NCBI RefSeq assembly: GCF_018977255.1
Contig: NW_024704769.1
Location: 1,798,001-1,862,000 of the forward strand
DNA length: 64,000 nt
Reading direction: 5' to 3'
Origin: Callorhinchus milii
Lineage: Eukaryota
Made by a program: the position numbers and the translations under genes. The number at the start of each line of letters is the position of its first letter. The first letter of the stretch is position 1. Below the pieces are notes generated by a model. The model was given only the letters and a program-made list of their open reading frames with translations. It was not told the DNA's origin and ran no database searches. Below, one piece after another: positions 1,887 through 56,200 of this stretch.

Positions 1887-5007
<3,121 letters not shown>

Positions 5008-10969: not shown

Positions 10970-11635
10970 CTGGGGTAAGAGCGGGGGAGTGGGACTAGTT
11001 GGGGTTAGAACGGGGGAGTGGGATTAGTTGGGGTAAGAGCGGGGGAGTGGGGACTAGTTGAGGTAAGAGCGGGGGAGTGGGGACTAGTTGGGGTAAGAGC
11101 GGGGAGTGGACTAGTTGGGGTAGGCGGGGGAGTGGGACTAGTTGGGGTAAGAGCGGGGGAGTGGGACTAGTTGGGGTAAGAGCGGGGGAGTGGGACTAGT
11201 TGGGGTAAGAGCGGGGGAGTGGGACTAGTTGGGGTAAGGGCGGGGGAGTGGGGACTAGTTGGGGTAAGAGCGGGGAGTGGGACTAGTTGGGGTAAGAGCG
11301 GGGGAGTGGGACTAGTTGGGGTAAGAGCGGGGGAGTGGGACTAGTTGGGGTAAGAGCGGGGGAGTGGGACTAGTTGGGGTAAGAGCGGGGGAGTGGACTA
11401 GTTGGGTAAGAGGGGAGTGGGACTATATGGGGTAAGAGCGGGGGAGTGGGGACTAGTTGGGGTAAGAGCGGGGGAGTGGGACTAGTTGGGGTAAGAGCGG
11501 GGGAGTGGGGACTAGTTGGGGTAAGAGCGGGGGAGTGGGACTAGTTGGGGTAAGAGTGGGGGAGTGGGGACTAGTTGGGGTAAGAGCGGGGGAGTGGGGA
11601 CTAGTTGGGGTAAGAGCGGGGGAGTGGGACTAGTT
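10970..11635 (+). repeat. ~29-30-bp G-rich minisatellite (about 22 units) expanded inside a CR1-like LINE 3' tail
   Basis: Unit GGGGTAAGAGCGGGGGAGTGGGACTAGTT; flanked by ...GGGAATTGGATAGGTATT... and CAGCTCTTCCAAAGAGCCGGCACAGGCCCGATGGGCCGAATGGCCTCCCTCTGTGCTGTAA; same tail also at about 62380-62520. Confidence 0.9.
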
Positions 11636-12577
11636 GGCAGCTCTTCCAAAGAGCCGGCACAGGCCCGATGGGCCGAATGGCCTCCCTCTGTGCTGTAAAA
11701 TTCTACCACTTCTAACACACGAGCGGCACTGACACGTCCCGGGAGTCCCCACGCGTCTGGGGCGGAAATGCGCGCCCTCTCCCCGGAGGGAACCCGCGCA
11801 TCGCGGAGCGAACGAGAGAAGCGAAACCGGAGAGGAACCTGATCGCGGGTAACTCCATTTACTTATACGGCGCACCGCGCGTTTGCAATCCGGCTCGAGA
11901 CGCAGTCAGGAACAACAGCAACAGTCCACAGCTTGATACAGAGCCTGGATCCACTGGTAGCATTTGTGACGTGCGGGGGTTCGAGCCCTCGCCTCGCAAG
12001 CGAGAGGACCCGGGTTCGATTCCCAGGGACGGCGAAACCTTAGGCAAGTTTCCTTACTCCACACACACGCACACACACACGCACACACGCCTGTGCTTAC
12101 CGAGCTTTACCTTTTCCGGGGGTGATAAATCTCTCGGACTGGGTCGCTGGGGCGCAATTGTCTGCCGCGTCTTTCCCCAATACACGGTCGCTACTGCACG
12201 TTGCACTATTTTCCGCGAAGCGCTTTGAGTGAGACGAGGCTCTACATCAAAGGCAGAATATATTGTGAAGTGCATTGGACTGCGTATCGCGTGGGGCGAA
12301 ACGCGGCAGCCAACCCGCGCGCACAGCGGCGTCCCCCGCCAACAGCCGTGGAGTGGGCGTTAGTTAATTTATTGGTCGGAGGGATTATTACCCCCAGGGA
12401 AAGCGATCCGCCAATCGACTAACTCCCGAGTTCCTACTTAATGCTTCGTAAACAGAGGCGCGCGCGCGTGTGTGTGTGTGGAGTAAGGAAACTTGCCAAA
12501 GATTTCGCCCTGCCCGCCCGCCCGGGAATCGAACCCGGGGCCCTCTCGCCTGCGAGGCGAGCGCTCTAACCACCGAG

Positions 12578-13102
12578 CTACAGATTTTGCTGGTCCGTGA
12601 AGGGGAAAACCTCCTGCGTCAGCTTTGTAACGAAACAAGGCATCTGCTTCTTGCCTCCAATCTAAGAACAGGAGAGGACAGCATAAGGATCCGCCAGACG
12701 AAAGGAGACCCGAGATCCGTCCAGTTCGCCTTCCGCCATCCTTGCCCAAGTCACGTCCCAAACAACAACAACAACAACAACAACCGGAGGCAAGCGAGGG
12801 AGCGAGGCGAAGGGAATGTGGGATGGAGTTCCAAATATAGAGGCCTTATCACGGTCTGTTTCCCGAGGGAGCCGGTTGCAATACGTTGGCTCCTCGCTCT
12901 CACCTCTCTCCCCCTGGACAAGAAACGTGTGGCCACCATGAAGTTGACCCGCGTCATTATCCTCAGCAGCTCCCAGTGTCTCTGCTCTCCCTCCTCCAGC
13001 AAGTCGCACAGAGACTGGAAGAAAAATGACCCCGATGCGGTCAGGAACGCTGAGTAATCTGCGGGAGGGAAGAGACACGAGTTTAACTGTGGAGTTCCTC
13101 AA

Positions 13103-13135
<33 letters not shown>

Positions 13136-14353
13136 CGCGCACGCGTCTCTGTTCATCCAGCAGTCAGTAGATACCCGGTTGTTAGTCGATTGGCGGATCG
13201 CTTTTCCGAGTATTCCAGAGATGGAATGGACTGCAAACTCTCTCCCTGGAGGAACCTGTTTACCCAATTCCGGAGAGTATTAGGCGCAGGTTGGCGAGAG
13301 CCAAGGCTTGAGGGGGAGCCCCAGAGTGTGCGTTGGGGTAACTGCTGGAGTCTAACCATCTAAACCCACACACAGCTCCGGCCATTGATGTCCCTGTCTG
13401 GCCGAGCTTTCCCCCTCCTTGTCCGGCTCGGACCCCCCTCCCCGTTAGTTAGGGCTTTGGCTGTGGGGTTACCAGGAGCCGAGGGGGAGCATTCCCGGCC
13501 CCCAGTGACTGGTCGGCCCTTCCAGGTCCTGCCCATGAGCCGGGCCGGGCTGTGCTGCCATCAGCAGCGAGTGCCCTGGGACACTGCACAGAGATAGGGC
13601 GGTGCAAGGTCATGATGTGCGAGCGAGGATCTTGATTTAAATCCTCTGGGGATTCAGTGGGACTATAGTGTAACAGTAATAACAAGCCTCGCATTTGATT
13701 CCAGCGCCTTATCACGTCTTCGAGACGACTCAAAGTGCTTCACAGGATACACTGCAAAGTGTAGTGACTATATTTTGTGGGCGAAACACGGCAGCCAATG
13801 GGATTCCCCACAAACAGCGATGGATTGAGTGATCCAATTTTTTTTTAAGGCATTCTTACCCCCGGAACGGCGATCCCTCTGATCGACTAATAACCGGGTT
13901 CCTAACCACTAAAGCCACAGGACCTTAAAATAAATGAAAGTACGTCCGACACTGGGCTGTTGCAAAAGCAGTAGCGAAGCCATCATTTCAGACAGTGATA
14001 AGACACAGACACGGTAATTTTATACAGTCTTTTAAAAGCTCTTGAAACAAATCCGAATCGAGAAAGAGGGAGAACTTGCCCGACGTTTCACCCTGACCTG
14101 ATTCCTGCCCGGGAATCGAACCCGGGGTCCTCTCTCGCTTGCGAGGGGAGAGCTCTAACCACCGAGCTACAGGGAAACTCCACTCACCCGAAGTGGTAGA
14201 GAAGTGCACAGCGGTTGCTTCTGGTATGGCCTGGTAATGGGAGAAAGCTTCTTCCTGTGGGAGAGCGCTTTCCATCTCCACCATATGGTCAGTCTCCAGG
14301 GTTACCCCAGGGTCCAGTTGGTCTCCCCGGCAGGCCTGAGGGAGAGAGAGAAC

Positions 14354-14384
<31 letters not shown>

Positions 14385-16111
14385 AGGGGGGGGCGGGATG
14401 GGGAGACACGGGTTCAGTCAGTCAGTGGCTTTGCCCCTCATTACCTCTGCGACCTGCTCACCCCATGTCAACCTCTCCGCTCCCTCCGCTCAGTGGGCTC
14501 CGGCCTGCTCCACGTCCCCAGCCCGGCCCACCCCCCATCCCCCCGCCCGCCCGCTATCAGCGGTCAGGCCTTCAACATCACCGGCCCCCACTTTTTGGAA
14601 CTCCATCCCACAGTCCCTCCACCTCGCCCCCTCCCTCGCCTCCTTCAAGGCCCGTCTCAAGACCCTCCTTTTCGACCAACCGCACCTTCGGTCACCCTCC
14701 TACCCCCCACCCGCCCGCCCGCCCGCCAGAGGAAACAGTTGCACCCTTATCTACTCTTATAGTTATAATAATAATAATCCTTGCATTTGATATAGCGCTT
14801 TTCACGTCTTCTCGACGTCTCAAAGCGCTTCACAGAATAGACTGTAAAGTGAATTGACCGTATATTTGTGGGCGAAACGCGGCAGCTAATTGCGCACAGC
14901 AATGTCCCACAAACAGTCGTGGATTGAAAATGACCAATTTATCATTGCTTTGTTTTGGAGGGATATTATTAGGCTCTGTGTGGAGTAAGGAAACTTGCCC
15001 AAGGTTTCTCCCTCTGCCTGGAATTGAACTCAGGTCTCTCACTTGCAAAGCGAGTGCTCTAACCACTGAGCTACAGGACTCGACTTATTTACTTGGATGA
15101 AGAAGATCTTGGCTTTGCCGGCCAAGCTGGGGCTGTTCTGGGCTGTGAACAGGGAGTAGATGTGGCGGAGTGGGACCGGCTGACTGTCTGCCCCATATAT
15201 CACACCGTCTTCTCCGTGGCTGGAAATAATGGAGATGAAACAGGCTCCGTGCTGCCTCTGGCTTTCTGTGGGAAAAGGGGAACCAGCTCATCGCGGGGCC
15301 AAACCCATTACCCCCCCAGCCCCCCCAACTCCAGCCCACCCGGCTCCAAACCCCCAGACCCCAGCCCCCAACCCACAGCCCTCACGCCCAGCTCCAAACC
15401 CCCAAACCCAAACCCAATCCCCCACTCCAGCTCTCAACACAGCCCCCAACCCCCAACCCTGGGGGCTTTGAGTTCAGTCTAGGCTGAAACACAGGTGCAT
15501 GAAACATTAGGACTATGAACTTAAAGAGAGGGAAGTTTCTCCCCGTGTTTAGGCAAACAAACTCCCCCAAATAAAACTGGTTATTCACCAAGTAGCTGTT
15601 TGGAGGACTTTGCAGTATGCAAATTGGCTGCCACGTTCACCTGCAATATACACAGTCGCCCTTCACAGCAATTCGCAGTGAAACACCTCGAGACGATTCA
15701 GCATTATTGTTAATAATAGTAATTAAAAGCCCGGTATCAATGTAATAATCCTTGCATTTGAATGCAGCGCCTTATCACCTCGTCGTTGAGACGTCTCAAA
15801 GCGCTTCACAGGATACACTGTGCAGTGAATTATGCTGTAGAGTGAACTGAATGTGCACTTGGTGGGCGAAACGAATCAAAGAGAGGACTACTCTTACCTC
15901 TCTTGTACTCCTGTAGGATCTCCCGGGCTGTGTAGTCGATCTTTAGCCTTACCTCAAAGCCCAGGTTGGACAGCACGTTGTGCAGACGTTTTGTGTCTAT
16001 CGCAGCAAAAGGTCTTCTGCGTAAGGGGAATTGACCGTGGAATTGTTGCACCGTGATGATCAGTACCCGGGGTTTCCGGGGACACCCTGAATCGGGCGAG
16101 ATTTCCGTCAT
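12578..16111 (-). CDS. CASP17: Caspase, short-prodomain effector-type, most similar to caspase-17 (257 aa)
   Basis: Exons (minus) 16111-15898, 15265-15093, 14335-14188, 13058-12904, 12661-12578 (TAG), all AG/GT and in phase. p20: MTEISPDSGCPRKPRVLIITVQQF...RRRPFAAIDTKRLHNVLSNLGFEV...CFISIISSHGEDGVIYGAD...PSLAGKAKIFFIQACRG. p10: IPEATAVHFSTTSDYSAFLTASGSFFFQSLC...ELLRIMTRVNFMVA...KKQMPCFVTKLTQEVFPF. In-frame TAG upstream of the ATG. Caspase family is certain; the casp17 name is from recalled similarity. Confidence 0.88.
13210..13590 (+). mobile_element. Unclassified interspersed repeat family copy (caspase intron)
   Basis: Matches 48480-48810 and the reverse complement of 8565-8850. Confidence 0.75.
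14765..15081 (-). mobile_element. tRNA-derived SINE, internally shortened young subfamily
   Basis: Head AGTCCTGTAGCTCAGTGGTTAGAGCACTCGCTTTGCAAG with A and B boxes, diagnostic CACACAGAGCCTAATAAT junction, (ATT)n tail. Confidence 0.85.
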
Positions 16112-19678: not shown

Positions 19679-22600
19679 ATGATCCCAGCCACTTTCAAAC
19701 TCTGTGCAGCCATCTCCTACCAACACTGCCGGACTTTGTCAGGTAACTAACACCGTGTCTAAACCTACTCAGTGGGTTGTTGTCCAGCCTCAAGGTTTTA
19801 AAGTAGACGTGGAGTTCCCTATAGCTCGCATTGGTCATTCCACCCACGGCTGTTTGTGGAGAACGCTGCTGTGCGCAATCGGCTGCCGCGTCTCGCCCAC
19901 GAAATACACAGTCGCTACGCTTCACAGTCTGTCCTGCGAAGCGCTTTGAGACGTCTCAAACACGCGATGAATCGCCTTATCGTCTTCGCCTCGGCCCCTT
20001 CGAGGTCCGTCTCAAAGCCCTCCTCTTCGACCGCGCCTTCAGCCACCCTCCTAACCCCACCCGCAGCCCCCCCACCCTCCCCCGCCCTCCACCCTCTCCT
20101 GATCCCAACCCCCAGCTCGGGTCCAAATCCCTGACTGTCCAGTCCAGCGCCTCCCGACATGAAAGCCGCTGTTGTGTTCATGTCATTTTCGTCGTCGTAC
20201 CAAATGCAAAGGATTATTATTAATATTAATTATGGTACAGCACTGCCAGCTGTTTGAAGGCACGTCTCCCTCTCTCTCCCTCTCTCTAACGTGTCTCGTT
20301 GTCGTTGAAGGGGTGAGACACACAGCTGTCGCCGCTCTCGGCCATGAGCTGAACCTTCTGAGACTCCAGAGCCAGGGACCCAGCGGGTGGGTGAATCGGG
20401 TTCGCCGGAGGAGCTCCATGCTCAGTGAGTATCGCTCAACTCTCGCATACATTGAACGAAATAGAACATTCGGAGTTCCCTGCGGCTCAGGGGTTAGAGC
20501 CCTCTCGCCTCGCGAGCGAGAGAGGACCCGGGTTCGATTCCCGGGCGGGTCAGGTCAGGGCGAAATGTTGTCCAAGTTTCCTTACTCCACACACCTGTTT
20601 ACCGAGTGGTACGTAGGAACTCGGATGTGAGTCGATTGACGGATCGCTTTCTGGGGGTAATAATCCCGTCCATAAATAAATAATAATTCGGTCACTCAAT
20701 CCACGACTGTTTGTGGGGGACGCTGCTGTGCGCAATTGGCTGCCGCGTTTCGCCCACAAAATATACAGTCACTGCACTTTACAGTCTATTCTGTGAAGCG
20801 CTTTGAGACGTCTCGAAGACGTGATATCAAATGCAAAGATTATTATTATTATTATTATTACGATTGATTCTTCTGCTTTCTCTGGAATTCTCTGGGATTT
20901 CCCCGTGTAGGGGAGAGGCATGGAACGCTCAGTTGGGTTTGGAGACCCTTAAGCAACGCTGATGGGTTTCCGGCCGGGGGGGGGAAAAAAATACCTTGTG
21001 CCAACAATTCCGAGTCTTTCTTCCTTCCTTCCTCCCTTCCTCCGCAGGCAGCAGGCTCGAAGAGAAACTGTTCAGCGATGCTGAGATGGCTTACGTTAAA
21101 CAGGGAGAAGATGCTTTGCAAAAGTCCCTCTGCATTTTACAGGATACCAATGGCTGGAAGTCTGAGATTGAATCCGTGAGTACATGGCCTCAACGCTTAA
21201 GGGGAAGAATAAAGGAGACACAGTCGATCAATTCTAATATATTTGGTCACACTTTTTTGATCGTAAGTCCTGTAGATCAATGGTTAGAGCTGGGATTTCG
21301 ACCCGAGCTCGGGGTTGGGATCAGGAGGGCTGGAGGGCAGCGAGGGTGGGGGTAGGAGGATGACCGAAGGCTCGATCGAAGAGGAGGGTCTTGAGATTGC
21401 TGGGAGGGGGCGAGCTGGACGGACTGTGGGATGGAGTTCCAGAGGGTGGGGGCAGAGAGGCTGAAGGTCTAACCGCCGATGGTGGGGTGGGCAAGGCCGG
21501 GCGGGGGGGGGGGGGGACATGGAGCAGGCCGGAGCCCACTGAGCGGAGGGAGTGGACAGGTCAACATGGAGTTAGCAGGTCACAGAGGTAGGGAGGAGCA
21601 AGGCCATGGAGGGCTTTGTCAGCGAGGAGGAGGCTTTCGAACTCAATCCTCCGAGGGATGGGGTGGGGGGTGGAAGCCAGTGAAGCCAAGGAAACAAGAA
21701 AGTGACTTACATTCTCTCTAAATTTCACAGGCAAATGGTGATAAAGTGGCCAGTAAAATCCTTCCCGACCTGGGGAAAGTATTTAAGCTTGAGATTGTGT
21801 TGGATAATTCGTCGGACCTGCTGTACAGAGAGCTCTTCGACAAGATAGAACAAATGGGAGAGTGGAACCCGAATGTCAAGCAAGTCAAGGTAGGAGTGCT
21901 GCAGACCAGTGGTTAGAGCACTCGCCTCGTAAGCGAGAGAACACGGGTTTGATTCCCGGCAGGGTGAAACCTCAGGCGAGTTTCCGTACTCCGCACACAC
22001 ACACGCGCCTCTGTTATTCGATTAGCGGATCATTTTCCGGGGGTAATAATCCCCCCCAAAATATTAATTTTGCCTCTCAACCCACGGCTGTTTGAGGGGG
22101 ACGTCGCTGTGCGCAATCGGCTGCCGCGTTTCGCCCACAAAACACGCAGCCGATTCCCTCGACAGCGTATCTATCCTGTGAAGCGCTTTGAGACGTCTCG
22201 AAGACGCGATAAGGCGCTGGGTCGAATGCAAGCGTGGCGACCGTTTATTTTGTGGGCGAAATCAGGGTCGGTTGGTGGCTCCTGACCCACTATCGTTCAC
22301 GTGTGAATAGTGGTGACTATTATTGCTGGTGAAGGGTCTCGAGGTGTTTGATTTTGCTGTGAATGTTTCAGATACTGAAACGCATTGGCAACGAAACACT
22401 GGTGACTCACGAGATAGCGGCCGAGACTCCAGGCCACCTGGTGGGGCCACGGGACTTTGTGAGCGTGAGGTACTCCAAAAGGCGAGGCTCCACCTGCTTT
22501 CTGGCCGGGATGTCCACACACTGCGACATGATGCCCGAACAGAGAGGCGTTATCAGGTACAAAGCCTTCGTTTGGTACGTTCACGTATAGCTCAGCGGTT

Positions 22601-27134: not shown

Positions 27135-40113
<12,979 letters not shown>

Positions 40114-40275
40114 TTTCCTGACTCTTCCCGCGCTGGACTCCTTAAAGGCGCACAACCGCCAGCCCGCGCCCTTAAAGGCAAAGGCTCCCAAACCCAGCCG
40201 GTCGGCGAACAATAAATTCATACCCAACATTAGCCACAGTGGGGGGGTGGGGAGGAGGGGGAGGAGGTGATAGGT

Positions 40276-40602
40276 TAATAATAATAATAATAATCCTCGC
40301 ATTTGATATAGTGCTTTTCACGTCGGGAGGACGTCCCAAAGCGCTTCACAGAACACACTGTAAAGTGAAGTGACTGTATATTTGTGGGCGAACGCGGCGG
40401 CCAATTGCGCACAGCAATGTCCCACAAACAGTCGTGGATTGAAAATGACCAATTTATTATTGTTTTTGGTTTTTTGGAGGGAATATTATTAGGCTCTGTG
40501 TGGAGTAAGGAAACTTGCCCGAGGTTTCGCCCTCTGCCTGGGATTGAACTCAGGTCTCTCACTTGCAAAGCGAGTGCTCTAACCACTGAGCTACAGGACT
40601 CC
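40276..40602 (-). mobile_element. tRNA-derived SINE, young shortened subfamily, just upstream of the ASH2L start
   Basis: Near-identical to 14765-15081, 54386-54710 and 59793-60120. Confidence 0.85.
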
Positions 40603-43258: not shown

Positions 43259-43380
43259 TGTGTATTGAGCTCGATGGGGGTGGGCTGGGGGTCAAGGGGT
43301 GGGGTGGTGGTGGGGGGGGTTGATCAAAGAGATGTAGTGACTAGCCATCAGCCACTTCAAAGCTCTGTCCCACCTATAAA
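43259..43380 (+). promoter_or_regulatory. nodal proximal promoter (FoxH1-like site, two TCF/LEF sites, TATA box)
   Basis: TGTGTATT at 43259-43266; ATCAAAG at 43323-43329; TTCAAAG at 43356-43362; TATAAA at 43375-43380, about 75 bp upstream of the ATG. Confidence 0.6.
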
Positions 43381-43452
43381 ACGCCTCCCAACCACCAGCC
43401 CGACATTCAGTTAAGCTCTCCACACCTCCTCCTCCTAAACAGAGCAGAGCAA

Positions 43453-46400
43453 ATGGCTGGGGGTCAGCGCCTCCCAGGACTTTCCCCCTTAATAGTCCCC
43501 CTCCTCCTCTTGGTGGTCGCCACAACTCGGGCAGACCGAGGGGCTGGGGTCGCCCCGGCAGCCCGCGGGCCACTTGCCCCTGCTCGCGGGCCGCCAAGGG
43601 TTGCCCGCGGGCCGCCAAGCGTTGCGGGTTGGATACTCCGGCAGCGGCTCCCGCTCCAGCCCCGCTATCCCGCCTACATGATGCGCTTATACAGAGCGGC
43701 GACCGGAGGCGGAGATGTCCCGAGACAGCACCGGACAGCGGTCAGAGGGGCGGACAAGATCCTGAGTCTGGAGGCGGCGAGTAAGTCATTGTCAGCAGTT
43801 TGTCTGTGTGACTGTCTGTCTGTGTGTGTGTCTGTCTGTGTGTGTGTCTGTCTGTGTGTGTGTCTGTCTGTGTGTGTGTCTGTCTGTGTGTGTGTCTGTC
43901 TGTGTGACTGTCTGTCTGTGTGACTNNNNNNNNNNNNNNNNNNNNNNNNNNNNNNNNNNNNNNNNNNNNNNNNNNNNNNNNNNNNNNNNNNNNNNNNNNN
44001 NNNNNNNNNNNNNNNNNNNNNNNNNNNNNNNNNNNNNNNNNNNNNNNNNNNNNNNNNNNNNNNNNNNNNNNNNNNNNNNNNNNNNNNNNNNNNNNNNNNN
44101 NNNNNNNNNNNNNNNNNNNNNNNNNNNNNNNNNNNNNNNNNNNNNNNNNNNNNNNNNNNNNNNNNNNNNNNNNNNNNNNNNNNNNNNNNNNNNNNNNNNN
44201 NNNNNNNNNNNNNNNNNNNNNNNNNNNNNNNNNNNNNNNNNNNNNNNNNNNNNNNNNNNNNNNNNNNNNGGGGTTTGGGGAGAAATCCGGGAGTTGAGGG
44301 TAATGGCAACAGCTGTAATGGTGACAGTAATCGCGGCAACAATAATCCAATCGCATTTCGCTCACACGAAACCCACGGTCACAGTCGAACCCGGGTCCTC
44401 TCGCCTGTGAGGCGAGACCCCTGACCCCTGAGCCACATTAACTAACGCTGTTCTCTGTCTCTCTCCCACCCTCCAGGTTGGGCCTACAGAGGAGACAGGT
44501 GGGTGATCCACTTTGATCTCTCCTCCATTTCCGGGCAGGACAGCGTACAGTTTGCTGAGCTTCGGCTGCACTTGTCCCAAATCCCCGTCGGCACCAACGC
44601 AACCATCACCATCTATCACAGCCGCGGGAGAGAGTGCGCGGGGAACCAGAGCTGCCAGGATCGCTTCCTCCTGGGCTCCTTCACCGCTGACCCTTCCACC
44701 ACCGAGTCCTCCTGGAAGGTCTTCAACGTGACTGGTCTCCTGGACGTGTGGACTGGCCTCGAGCCAATCGAGAACGCTCAGGTCTCGCGTCCCCATCGAC
44801 ACATCGAAGCCCGAGACCACGAGGCGGGTGAGGAGCATCTCAAGGTCATCAGAGAAAAACTGGCTTCGGTCAAAGCCAAGAGATCGGGCACCAACCCCAC
44901 CACGCGCCCGTTTCTCCGAGCAATGGCCGTGGACCAGGTGATGATGGTGGTGTTCTGCAAGAGGAACAGCTCGGAGGGGCTGGGCGCCCCCACGCTGCTG
45001 CGGACGGTGGAGAGCTCCAAGTTCAGGACCTCGGGCAAGGGGAACGAGGACGCCAGCGGCAAGCGGCACAAGCGCAACAAGAAGGAGCGCTTGGCCGAGG
45101 GCAACAGCACCTCATCGCAGGCCGCGGGTCAGTCCCTGTGCCGGAGGATGGACATGGAGGTGAACTTTGACCACATCGGCTGGGGGGAGTGGATTATCTA
45201 CCCCAAAACCTTCAACGCCTACCGATGTGGCGGCCTGTGCCCCTCTCCCGTGGATGAGGTCTTCATGCCCACCAACCATGCCTACATGCAGGTAGGTGAG
45301 AGATGTCTCCAGGTCGCTCCCTATGGCCGTGAGGGTTTCTTAGCAGAGCAATGCCTTGTAGTGTAGTGGTCAGAGCCCTCGTCTCGCAAGTCAGGGCAAA
45401 ACGTTGGGCAAGTTTCCTTACTCCCCGCACACAAGGGCCAAAGGTTTTGCCCTGACCCGCCCGGGAATCGAAGCAAGCAGAGAACCGTCGTTAAACCAAA
45501 AGGCGCAGTCACTACGCTTTTACAGGAGAAACTCCGTGACCGACGTCCGGATGTTTTCACGTGAGAAGACATTATATCAAATGCAGGGATAACTCTTATC
45601 CCCGACACTTGAAATCCTGTGAAGTGCTTTGAGCTGTCTGATCATCAACAACAACAACACCGTTTATATAGCTTCCCTCAAGTGGGGTCGTGTCCGAGGG
45701 CTCTCGGGAGGACATCAATGTGCGTCTAAACAGGGTTTGTCTGTCCAAGGTGGACGTTTAAGATCCCACAGTGCTATTCAAAAAGAGAAGGGCACCTCTC
45801 TCTCTCTCTCTCTCGGTGTCCTGCCTGACAACCCCCCCTCCCCACCGCTCCCCCAGATAACATTCGGTCACTCACTCTCGATGGCTGTTTGCGAGATATG
45901 GCTCTGTGCGCAAATTGGCTGCCCGCAAAAATACACAGTCACCACACTGGATCCCGTGAGGCGCTTTGGGGGCGTGAACCGAAAGGCGCTGCAGCCGACT
46001 TTTAAGAATTATTGTTGGTTATTAATCGGGAGAAACCGTCCCAGATAAGTGACGAAACCACGGGTTAAAGTCTCTCTGTCATCAGACCGGATTGACAGCT
46101 GGTGACTGTGTTGTGTGCCAGTCACTTCACTCACCACTGTCGGTGAGGTGACTGTGACCAGTTAAGACTGTAGTGGCTGTTTGCCAATCCCCTCTGTGTC
46201 TGGGAGCATCGCTTTGTCACGCGTCTGCAGTACTGGAGCACGGTATCCCGAATACCCTGGAGTTCCCTGTGGCTCAGGGGGGTTAGAGCCCTCGCCTCGC
46301 CAAGCGAGCGAGAGGACCCGGGTTCGATTCCCGGGCGGGTCAGGTCAGGGCAAAGTTTTCTTACACCCCCCTCCCAACACACACACACACATACCTCTGT

Positions 46401-46808
46401 TCACCAGCAGTCAGTAGGATCGGTAGATGGCTTTTCCGGGGATAGTAATCCCTCCAAGGAAAAATTAAATAAATAATAATTTCTTTCAATATCTGGGGGG
46501 TGTGGGGGGGGAGATACAGTGTACAGTTTGGGGGACACATGTCGAGCGACTGGATGGACCAGCGAGTTCTTATGCCCTTAATTTGGACGTTGTATTATTA
46601 AGATGATTGTAATTATAACGACAACGTGCGTTTTACACTATCTTTCCTCCCCCAGAGTTTGCTGCAGTCCTTCCACCCGGAGCGGGTACCTTGCACGGCC
46701 TGTGTGCCGGTCAGGCTCAGCTCCCTCTCGATGCTTTACTACCGGGACTCGGAGGTGGTGTTGAGCCACCACAAAGACATGATCGTGGAGGAGTGTGGCT
46801 GTCGCTGA
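43453..46808 (+). CDS. NODAL: Nodal (TGF-beta family) preproprotein, EIF4EBP1-ASH2L locus paralog (squint/southpaw/Xnr1-type), 431 aa
   Basis: Exons 43453-43780, 44477-45291, 46656-46808 (TGA), phases 1 and 0. Signal peptide ([11 protein letters not shown]), [11 protein letters not shown] prodomain motif, RHKR convertase site, mature domain [35 protein letters not shown]...[11 protein letters not shown]...VPCTACVP...MIVEECGCR. Confidence 0.96.
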
Positions 46809-53273: not shown

Positions 53274-56200
53274 TTAAATGTCCATCTCAAACTGAGCGTC
53301 TTCTGTTAAACGAGAGAACGTCATCCAGTGAGGCCTCCGACCATAGCACGATGACACCTCGGCCACACACAATCTCAGGCCTCGCAGCCTCTCTCTCTCA
53401 CACACACACACACACTCATTCCCCCCCCCCCACACACAAACACTCATACCCCCCCGACACACACACACAGATACACACACTCATGTGTGCGCTCACACAC
53501 ACTCTTTCCCACACACACAAATCACGTGATCAGCCACGAGGAAAAGACTCCTGTGGGTGAGTGGGAATGATTTCAAGTGACCTCTTACCCCCCCCACACA
53601 CAACCACCACCCCCACCCCCTCCACCACCCCGAGTCTCAGTCTCTCTCTGTTACTCACACTCTCTCTCCCTCTCCAACTCCCCCTCTCACACACGTTCTC
53701 TCACATTTCCCCCACACCCCCCTCTCTCCATCACTCACGCTCACTTGACAACACAGCGAACAACACTCCAGAGACAGGAGTAGCTGAGCTGGCAGCGGGA
53801 TCGCGAGGGCGGTGGTGGAGGGGTTGGGGGTGTGTGTGTGTGTGGGGGGGGTAAGAGGTCACTTGAAATCATTCCCACTCACCCACAGGAGTCTTTTCCT
53901 CGTGGCTGATCACGTGATTTGTGGCTGGCTTGACCTTGTCTATGCAGGGGCTGGTCACCCCGGGAATTTTGGGAAGGTCTCGGGGCGGAGTCCTGGCCAC
54001 AGGGGAGTTGCGACACTCCATGAGGAATTTTCGGTCATAAATAATGCGAGTCCCTGGAAAAGACAAACATTACAGGTTACAATAGATTTTGGGGGACACG
54101 GGGGGGGGGGGGGACACATGAGGAAATCCGTCACGGTGATTCAAGATTTTATTTGGAGTTGAGGTACAGATCAGCCATAATTTAATAGAATGGAAGAACA
54201 GACTCGAGGGGCTGAATGGCCTCTTCCTGTTCCTATATTCCAGCCTGGAACCTCTGGAACACTCTCCCTCAATCCCTCTGCCTTGCTCCACGCTTCCCCA
54301 TCCTTAGGTCGAGCCTGAAGACCTCCGTTTTGACCGTGCCGACGGTCACCTCCCCCCTCCCCAGCATCGTGCTCCGCCACTGTCAAGTCCTGTAGCTCAG
54401 TGGTTAGAGCACTCGCTTTGCAAGTGAGAGACCGGAGTTCATTTCCAGGCAGAGGGCGAAACCTCAGGCAAGTTTCCTTACTCCACACAGAGCCTAATAA
54501 TAATCCCTCCAAAACCAAAAACAATAATAAATTGGTCATTTTCAATCCACGACTGTTTGTGGGGACATTGCTGTGGGCAATTGGCTGCCGCGTTCGCCCA
54601 CAAATATACAGTCAATTCACTTTACAGTGTGTTCTGTGAAGCGCTTTGGGACGTCCTCCCGATGTGAAAAGCGCTATATCAAATGCAAGGATTATTATTA
54701 TTATTATTATTTACACAGTACACAATCACTACACTTTATGGCACACCCTGTGAAGCGCTTTGAGACGGATTCCCCCAACGTGAAAGAAGATGCTGTATCA
54801 AGGATTTTTATTCTCAATAGACACCTAGAGACGTGTGCAAGTGAGCAAAGCTCCCGAGGTTACCAACAACCTTATCCACAGCCGGAGATAATATGAAACC
54901 TCAACACGATCAAACTTCGAAGTGCCGATACCCAGGTTCAAGGATAAAGCAAAGCTATTCAGCTATTCTTCTTCTGAGTTACCTCGCCACACAGACAACA
55001 TCAGAACAGCCTCAATTTGCACCTCGTATGCACAGTGATCAGAAGCGTTCACATGTCACACACAAAGCACAAAGCCCCTTTGTCCGGCTCCAGATCGAGT
55101 GTGAACTTCATATGATCACTCGATCGGAGGTGTCGATGAAACCAGACAATTTCAGCTCTCACGGACTTTGCTAACAAAGTCAAAGAATAAAGCGTATCAA
55201 AGAAAAAGTGCCTGTAAAATATGCATTGCAATAAACACTTTCTGATGTACAACAATAGCTGCTCACGCCATCAGCAGCTGCTCCGGGCCCTTTCTCCTGT
55301 CTGGGCCGTTGGTTCTGCTCGACAGGCAACGTTATCAGTTCGGTTTTAGCTGATTAGATTCCTGCAGTTACTTCAGCGCACACTCTGGGGTCCCCCCACC
55401 CCCCCAAGGCTTGGCTCTTGCCAACCCGAGCCTAATACTTTCCGGAATTAGGTAAGCCTCGAGATGTCTCACTGACGCGATGAGGCGCTAGATCCGATCA
55501 AGGATTGTTAATATTATTGTTAAGCAACAACAACAACAACAAGATTTCATTTATAGAGCGCCTTTCACGTCGGGAGGACGTCCCAAGGCGCTGAACAGTT
55601 GGGTCAGGGCCCGAGCAGTGGGGGGAAATGGTCAGGGGGAGGGAAGGGAGGGAGCGAGCGGGGGGGGGGGGGGAATAGTGAGGGGAGGGAAGAGAGGGAG
55701 CGAGGAGTGGGGAGATGGTCAGGGTGAGGGGAGGGAAGGGAGGTAGCGAGGAGGGGGTAGAGAGTCGAGAGGGGAGCTGAAGGCACGGTCGAAGAGAAAG
55801 GTCTAGAGACCGGCCTTGAGATCAGGTTGCATCCCGCCAGGGAGAGCGCGCGCATTCCAGTCCAACAATCTATCTCTGGGATCTCCATGTGTAGGTGGGA
55901 TGCCTGGAATTCTCAGTCTGGTTTGGAGACTTAAGTAAGGTGATGGGTTTCCGCGCGCGTGTGACTGAACCCCCCCTCCCACCAATGGATGAAATAACTT
56001 TCTCCAGTTGAATGTCGACGAGATAGAGACTCTCCTGCTTGGCTCCCGTCAGTGTCTCCTCAGCTCAGGAGGTGACAGCATCAATCTACCTCGATGTATT
56101 CTCCACCTCATGGAGCCAGTGCGGGAATCTCTGTGTCTTGTTCCGACTCTCAGCTGAGACCCTTATCCAAGTTTTCATCAGGTCCAGGCTGGACTACACC

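Follow-up and report, generated by a model that had tools for sequence, protein, structure and literature searches.

An elephant-shark caspase-17 gene with an intact catalytic dyad and a leucine in place of the second arginine of the S1 pocket

Caspase-17 is an orphan, known since 2008 and lost in marsupials and placentals. It was described from monotremes, chicken and frogs as a caspase-3-like protein of undefined function (PMC2779465; PMC12292325), has been reported in chicken and was not found in zebra finch (PMC2865498). The absence of a defined prodomain serves as a criterion for caspase-17 (PMC12292325). The zebrafish protein carries Met197 in place of a conserved substrate-binding Arg and is expressed in liver and intestinal bulb (PMC5965869); in bass the same Met is located at 151, 172, 175 and 176 (PMC13067673). 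Taken together, expression in liver and intestine is published for zebrafish, chicken and bass (PMC5965869; PMC13067673). The bass paper cites Eckhart et al. 2008 for a 'distinct substrate specificity' of caspase-17, therefore the residue at the Arg position may already have been discussed there. In the open-access literature we found neither enzymology of caspase-17 nor a description of a cartilaginous-fish member. Here we report on such a gene in 64,000 nucleotides (nt) of the elephant shark Callorhinchus milii (contig NW_024704769.1, positions 1,798,001 to 1,862,000; the window, to which all coordinates refer). The catalytic dyad is intact and Leu184 occupies the place of the second Asp-binding arginine.

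The gene is on the minus strand at 12578-16111. Five exons are separated by four introns, all GT-AG and in phases 1, 0, 1 and 0; the coding length of 774 nt, an open frame without internal stop, specifies 257 amino acids (aa). Pfam Peptidase_C14 (PF00656) is matched independently by three of the five exons. The coding part of exon 1 (15898..16111, residues 1-71, E 2.5e-06) comprises a 14-residue N-terminus, strand 1, loop L1 with the codons of Arg33 (16015-16013) and Phe35 (16009-16007), and helix alpha1. Exon 2 (15093..15265, residues 72-129, E 5.5e-11) contains Ser86-Ser87-His88-Gly89, with Ser86 encoded at 15224-15222 and the catalytic His at 15218-15216, and extends to Gln129. The catalytic Cys131 (14332-14330) is in exon 3 (14188..14335, residues 130-178), as is the intersubunit linker with LETD145-H146 and VEME151-S152 (codon of Glu151 14272-14270). 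Exon 4 (12904..13058, residues 179-230, E 9.5e-05) codes for the substrate-binding loop L3 and the start of L4 with Arg227; the L3 residues are Ser181 (Tyr204 in caspase-3), Phe183 (Trp206), Leu184 (Arg207; codon 13044-13042) and Phe190 (Trp214). The coding part of exon 5 (12578..12661, residues 231-257, stop TAG) supplies the end of L4 and the strand 237-247 centered on Val241 (Val266), the residues of which are predicted to form a dimer interface. A candidate polyadenylation signal AATAAA (12368..12373, minus strand) is located about 200 nt past the stop and is the sole such hexamer in 11000-12577.

An alignment with horse caspase-3 (P0107) equates Arg33 with Arg64, His88 with His121, Gln129 with Gln161, Cys131 with Cys163 and Leu184 with Arg207; the Leu184 column also contains Arg233 of elephant-shrew caspase-7. 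A profile of 86 caspase-17 family members aligned with human caspase-3 (4qud_A) again pairs the Leu184 position with Arg207 and leaves a gap of one residue ahead of GSWF. All 41 caspase-3/7-like proteins compared have Arg in this column. These alignments bear out a sequence-only reading of the window, according to which SHG (from residue 87) and QACRG (from 129, split by intron 2) are intact, the L1 Arg is retained in RPFAAID (RPF from 33) with Phe35 at the usual Gly (Gly66), and the loop DYSAFLTASGS (from 179) is one residue shorter and has Leu at Arg207. The linker was likewise read correctly as LETD (from 142) followed by HMVEMES (from 146), and so was the near absence of a prodomain: 14 residues precede strand 1, compared with a median of 9 in the caspase-17 family and of 53 in the 41 caspase-3/7-like proteins. 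An upstream in-frame stop and the lack of an earlier Met leave no defined prodomain, although there may be an extra upstream coding exon, considering that UniRef holds a 280-aa alternative model of the same gene (P0247) and that the transcript contig X1#3 described below ends at 16108.

Residues 179-191 include neither Arg nor Lys, therefore a shift of register cannot supply the arginine. A compensating arginine was sought across all columns of the family alignment and none was both invariant and family-specific. The S1 triad Arg-Gln-Arg is incomplete, i.e., Arg33 and Gln129 are kept and Leu184 stands for the second Arg. According to reviews S1 is made up of three side chains (PMC4357240; PMC12550167; PMC4626109), and the Arg207/R341-type arginine serves S1 and also anchors a P3 Glu (PMC12550167). 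The hallmark of C14A, a caspase fold (predicted here) with a His-Cys dyad in SHG and QACxG, is present. Judged by its sequence, the protein is a caspase (C14A) by descent, but the S1 pocket is not canonical.

The search with exon 4 first pointed to a basking-shark protein. Two wider searches, from which the best 120 of 365 and the best 120 of 326 matches were taken, gave a separate group of sharks, rays, frogs, teleosts, a lizard and birds, one member of which is named 'Caspase 17' (P0056). From 260 proteins gathered, 14 partial or mis-spliced, 41 caspase-3/7-like and 4 caspase-10 proteins as well as one alternative model of the present gene were set aside. The remaining 200 caspase-17 members comprise 125 from teleosts, 50 from sauropsids (one lizard), 14 from cartilaginous fish including the elephant shark, 10 from frogs and 1 unassigned, with perch-like fish and birds overrepresented. 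In a maximum likelihood tree (IQ-TREE, 43 of the 260 proteins) 26 rows including the query and P0056 form one side of a split with a support of 100/100; the query resides among the cartilaginous-fish members, apart from caspase-3, -7 and -10. FastTree with 241 rows separates caspase-17 from caspase-3/7 with a support of 1.0. The tree set had only one row named caspase-17 and was composed without caspase-6, -8, -9, -2 and -1 and without records from chicken, zebrafish, Xenopus and platypus. A link to caspase-17, to be checked by phylogeny, had been suggested from the window alone, and the trees agree with it. Unlike orthologues of caspase-3/7, the protein neither groups with caspase-3 or -7 nor possesses a YYSWRN-type L3 with Trp214.

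By sequence and phylogeny, then, we assign the gene to the caspase-17 family as its elephant-shark member. Once spliced, it encodes a protein which matches P0021 (XP_007909239.1/V9L8Q8) with 100% identity across 257 aa. P0021 is a Callorhinchus milii entry named 'caspase-3' or 'caspase-3-like'; this label reflects similarity only and is corrected by the caspase-17 assignment. Met176 of the smallmouth bass (M. dolomieu) protein P0159 falls into the Leu184 column, thus the published Met and Leu184 are one and the same position. The missing arginine is a family trait which is already published for teleosts and is not peculiar to the elephant-shark gene; it is, therefore, less surprising than first rated.

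The family alignment displays extremes of constancy and change. His88, Gly89, Gln129, Ala130, Cys131, Arg132 and Gly133 are present in 200 of 200 members, and Arg33 in all 198 scored. Position 184, scored in 199 members with one gap, is occupied by Met (89), Leu (62), Thr (11), Ser (11), Arg (8), Asn (6), Gln (5), Ile (3), His (2), Lys (1) and Val (1), i.e., 191 of 199 lack Arg. Fitch parsimony counts about 40 changes at position 184 with Leu at the root, and zero at Arg33, His88, Gln129 and Cys131; Arg was regained seven times, always on tip branches. Site rates in a subsample of 61 sequences are at percentiles 1-5 for these four residues and at 74 for position 184. The eight Arg-184 members which make up the seven events are P0019, P0085, P0148, P0161, P0191, P0192, P0195 and P0220; several exist beside a same-species duplicate with Met or Ser and constitute natural test pairs.

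Around position 184, one residue of L3 is lacking from 171 of 178 motif-matched members (22 were unmatched), and L4 is two or three residues short in 200 of 200. Of 199 scored members, 195 have Gly, Ala, Val or Ser at the Tyr204 position; the Trp206 position has Phe in 194, and the Trp214 position Val in 128, Met in 45 and Ile in 11. The S2 Tyr and the S4 Trp, present in 41 of 41 caspase-3/7-like proteins, are absent from all 199 and 198 scored caspase-17 members, respectively. The linker conforms to [EQKTV]xD[GSA] in 197 of 200. Arg or Lys is found at positions 38, 41, 42, 45 and 49 of helix alpha1 in 71-88% of caspase-17 compared with 5-46% of caspase-3/7-like proteins; basic residues enriched in the family are at 227 (Arg/Lys 96%), 38 (88%) and 211 (94%). 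Two further replacements are family-wide: Ser86, two residues before the catalytic His, is present in 200 of 200 members where 41 of 41 caspase-3/7-like proteins have Leu (Leu119), and Pro167 (199 members) replaces Glu190 of caspase-3/7.

How might such an enzyme work? The dyad and its flanks are unchanged from sharks to birds, thus a pseudo-enzyme would not be expected. Position 184 has wandered through eleven residues and back to Arg, which would be hard to square with a new pocket dependent on Leu or Met, and in view of the invariant Arg33 an uncharged P1 would be hard to explain. Viewed at the level of sequence, the pattern argues for a working protease in which site 184 was released from constraint, rather than for a pseudo-enzyme or a new Leu/Met pocket. 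It appears to fit an acidic P1 handled with lower efficiency somewhat better than a P1 other than Asp or a regulator, the two options raised by the sequence-only reading. We propose, with belief and doubt in equal parts, a dimeric zymogen which is activated by another caspase and retains a slow cleavage after acidic residues, though not at DEVD.

In this proposal the linker would be cut in trans at E-x-D-S/G by an Asp-specific protease, e.g., caspase-8 or granzyme B, both of which cleave I/L-E-T-D sites. In the elephant shark the cut would be at LETD145 or, poorly, at VEME151. P1 would be held by Arg33, Gln129 and the oxyanion hole alone, with lower efficiency and perhaps more tolerance of Glu. 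The loss of the contact between Arg and P3 Glu, combined with small S2 and S4 walls as in inflammatory caspases, would lead to a preference unlike DEVD; in inflammatory caspases V338 and V/I348 are these walls and R341 is the P3-Glu anchor (PMC12550167). The set of substrates would be narrow, and an exosite, for example on the basic face of helix alpha1, may provide selectivity. By analogy with the expression in zebrafish, chicken and bass, a role in liver and gut may be envisaged.

Several points weigh against this proposal. In the reviews, specificity for Asp is ascribed to the three S1 side chains acting together (PMC4357240; PMC12550167), and in caspase-4/11 autoprocessing as well as cleavage of substrates is blocked when this arginine is chemically modified (PMC11598138). 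Because the triad acts jointly and the modification is disabling, activity of caspase-17 could be near zero; a bulky adduct, though, differs from Leu. Kinetics of Arg207/Arg341 point mutants were not found in the open-access literature, and the accessible part of PMC8748541 has no data on Arg207. Nor is position 184 wholly free: 46 of 50 sauropsids have Leu there, and 89 of 125 teleosts have Met. The elephant shark is one of two among 200 members without the conserved linker Asp and its LETD is followed by His at P1'; with such a degenerate linker the trans-activation step is weakened for this species. No basic position of helix alpha1 is invariant, and the elephant shark keeps two of the five.

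The Leu184 position corresponds to the arginine which bacterial effectors modify in caspase-3, -4, -7, -8 and -9 (for caspase-7, -8 and -9, PMC9239266), and caspase-17 would lack the acceptor. That bacterial effectors drove the loss of the arginine is speculative.

An active protease with P1 moved off Asp is unlikely, whether toward Asn or Glu in a legumain-like, one-arginine pocket or toward an uncharged residue, with Leu184 and, in the elephant shark, Phe35 as walls of the pocket. It draws on the observation that in clan CD the residue at this site tracks the charge of P1, Arg207 in caspase-3 and Glu500 in MALT1 (PMC4626109), and that legumain, without a charged residue there, takes Asn, or Asp at low pH, using one arginine (PMC4357240). 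The root state Leu, the 151 of 199 members with Leu or Met and the family-fixed changes near the active site (Ser86 for Leu119, Ala182, Phe183) are compatible with it, and Glu151 at the elephant-shark processing site would suit a Glu-tolerant self-processing. Yet Arg33 and Gln129 never change, Arg returned to position 184 repeatedly, neither an acidic nor any other new residue has been fixed at this position, and the linker Asp is kept by 198 of 199 other members. A shade less probable is the most far-reaching version, an ancient (400-million-year) non-Asp protease of liver and gut, activated in apoptosis, for which P1 would be Glu, Asn or uncharged; Phe35 of the elephant shark would then fill the space of the arginine and Glu151 would be the matching self-processing site. 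The age is that of the jawed-vertebrate split, about 400 million years.

It is very improbable that caspase-17 cleaves DEVD in the ordinary manner of caspase-3, with some other basic residue in the role of Arg207. The database names caspase-3-like and caspase-7-like and the enriched basic positions 227, 38 and 211 would be in line with it, and an arginine of legumain helix alpha1 can overlie the Arg207 site (PMC4357240). None of the three positions, however, is invariant, and the elephant shark has Ile38. Position 227 equals caspase-3 residue 250, which lies in L4, and 211 is in the predicted dimer interface. Further, the S2 Tyr and the S4 Trp of caspase-3/7 are missing in all scored members, and the clade is separate with full support.

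An AlphaFold2 model predicts a caspase fold with a mean predicted local distance difference test (pLDDT) of 86.7 and a predicted template modeling (pTM) score of 0.86; the linker is disordered (pLDDT 50-60) and L3 is at about 78. The nearest structures are those of caspase-7 and -3 (template modeling score about 0.76-0.80; Z 30.8, root-mean-square deviation (rmsd) 3.4, 222 residues aligned). A caspase-3-type homodimer via strand 237-247 is predicted with a score of 0.61, the best of three controls reaching 0.00; the runs agree in at least 72% of contacts and the pLDDT is at least 77. Of the solved pairs, 21 of 30 attained the mark for dimers, compared with 0 of 23 single chains; the figures are 17 of 29 for eukaryotes, 7 of 16 for animals and only 1 of 7 in the absence of an older solved relative. 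The score of the modeled dimer thus shows likeness to solved caspase dimers, which the predictor may have learned, and not binding.

The protein could also be a regulator with little or no proteolysis, a cFLIP-like dimer partner or decoy which modulates caspase-3, -7 or -8. We consider this as unlikely as the shift of P1 away from Asp. The equivalents of Asp192 and Met268 are changed to Gln, Asp or Asn and to Asn, Arg or Lys, respectively; in caspase-3 these residues are part of the loop bundle and the dimer strand. The elephant-shark linker is degenerate, and the model superimposes on cFLIP (Z 22.0, rmsd 2.5, 189 aligned), which shares its fold. Moreover, the lost arginine serves S3 in addition to S1 (PMC12550167), and its modification disables caspase-4/11 (PMC11598138). 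On the other hand, dyad and flanks are unchanged in 200 of 200 members, whereas cFLIP has lost its catalytic residues, and the elephant-shark protein has no DED or CARD by which it could be recruited. cFLIP is described as catalytically inactive (PMC12292325). A long fused form was not detected among 922 candidates, which yielded only caspase-10 at 34-36%; this is weak evidence.

Some features are private to the elephant-shark copy. Phe35 occurs in no other member; of the 198 scored, 193 have Gly, Heptranchias has Arg and a further three have Ala. Gly is also found in 41 of 41 caspase-3/7-like proteins at this position; the non-Gly caspase-17 members besides the elephant shark are P0020, P0016, P0214 and P0215. 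By analogy with Arg44 in helix alpha1 of legumain, a residue located here may fill the space of the lost arginine. Glu151 replaces the linker Asp kept by 198 of 199 other members, the other exception being Scyliorhinus P0015 with Pro. LETD is in an insertion common to sharks and its Asp is not the conserved linker Asp of the family. In the elephant shark and in Scyliorhinus P0015 alike an upstream ETD is retained, followed by an unusual residue at P1' (His and Arg, respectively). Phe192 and Val16 are further private changes at conserved sites.

Expression was examined in four sequencing runs, X1 to X4, the RNA status of which is guessed and not on record. In X1 a contig of 795 nt (X1#3) spans the five exons in order, skips the four introns and differs in one letter; it covers 15898-16108 of exon 1 and has 0 other letters across exon 3. 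In X3, from a second study, a contig of 238 nt (X3#14) joins exons 2 and 3. No exon cover was seen in X2 and X4, where depth at the locus is swamped by intronic repeats. Contigs which join exons in order make it very likely that the gene is transcribed and spliced as modeled, which the sequence-only reading had left as a possible point of failure; a processed gene copy may be another source of such contigs. Copies of interspersed repeats are in the introns and the 3' flank (12290-12580, 13700-13900, 14080-14170, 14765-15080 and 15750-15880). These abundant repeats attract very high contig depth in all four runs, and one starts directly past the stop codon.

The private changes Phe35, Glu151, Phe192 and Val16 and the uncovered exons in two of four runs could be taken as signs that the elephant-shark copy is decaying under relaxed selection or that the gene model is wrong. 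This is highly improbable, given the open frame, the canonical splice sites, the identity with the database protein and the single other letter in 795 compared with X1#3. At 60 conserved columns the elephant shark shows 6 deviations, within the range of 3-7 (median 5) of the 14 cartilaginous-fish members.

The neighborhood in the window is a block of STAR, ASH2L, a nodal-related gene and EIF4EBP1, which matches a published block (bioRxiv 10.1101/483974). A START domain (STAR-like) is at 21000-22590 on the plus strand, ASH2 PHD and SPRY exons (ASH2L) are at 28300-40300 on the minus strand, a TGF-beta propeptide and mature domain (nodal-related by position) at 43345-46808 on the plus strand, and eIF4E-binding protein exons (eIF_4EBP) at 53869-54069 on the minus strand. 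An exon of a ubiquitin-conjugating enzyme (UQ_con; UBE2D-like by eye) is located at about 3290-3400 on the plus strand.

The elephant-shark copy dates caspase-17, and with it the loss of the arginine, back to the base of the jawed vertebrates. The family tally makes the remark of two fish papers testable, as close relatives differ by Arg versus Met, Leu or Ser at one site; such natural pairs, e.g., P0139 (Met) and P0161 (Arg) or P0255 (Leu) and P0019 (Arg), can reveal how much the second arginine contributes. Should P1 turn out to be a residue other than Asp, the rule which defines vertebrate caspases would have an old exception; if P1 is Asp, caspase-17 is a low-activity specialist of modest interest.

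Compared with known systems, the elephant-shark protein is most like caspase-17 of teleosts, frogs, reptiles, birds and monotremes, with which it shares the clade, the lack of a prodomain, the intact dyad, a residue other than Arg at Arg207 and shorter L3 and L4. It differs by Leu instead of Met, Phe35 for Gly, Glu151 for the linker Asp, its position on the cartilaginous-fish branch, the extra upstream LETD, a longer linker and the annotation as caspase-3(-like). Caspase-3 and -7 are the closest solved relatives by sequence (E 6e-37, zebrafish caspase-3a) and by fold. Shared with them are the equivalents of Arg64, His121, Gln161 and Cys163, the E-x-D linker of the family and the predicted dimer via the Val266 strand. 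In contrast, identity is about 35-37%, the equivalents of Arg207, Tyr204, Trp206, Trp214, Ser205 and Met268 are replaced, L3 is one and L4 two residues shorter, and the N-terminus is shorter by about 40 residues.

Residues at the S2 and S4 walls are small in the family, as they are in the inflammatory caspase-1, -4 and -5, which 82 of 199 members also resemble in having His at the 342-equivalent (roles in PMC12550167). Those enzymes, however, keep Arg341 and have a CARD, and the fold score is lower (caspase-4, Z 23.4, rmsd 2.5, 200 residues aligned). The resemblance concerns the pocket walls only, in a comparison made from review descriptions; the matches listed in the exon-4 PDB search included no alignment with caspase-1. 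Legumain (clan CD, C13) has the caspase fold (Z 18.4, rmsd 2.6, 193 aligned), an uncharged loop at Arg207 and one S1 arginine (PMC4357240). Yet identity is 10%, activation is different and the legumain pocket is zwitterionic with Asp231; this is analogy, not kinship. Finally, cFLIP also combines the caspase fold with a defective substrate site. It has lost catalytic residues, is inactive and carries tandem DEDs, whereas in caspase-17 the dyad is invariant in 200 of 200 members and a prodomain is absent.

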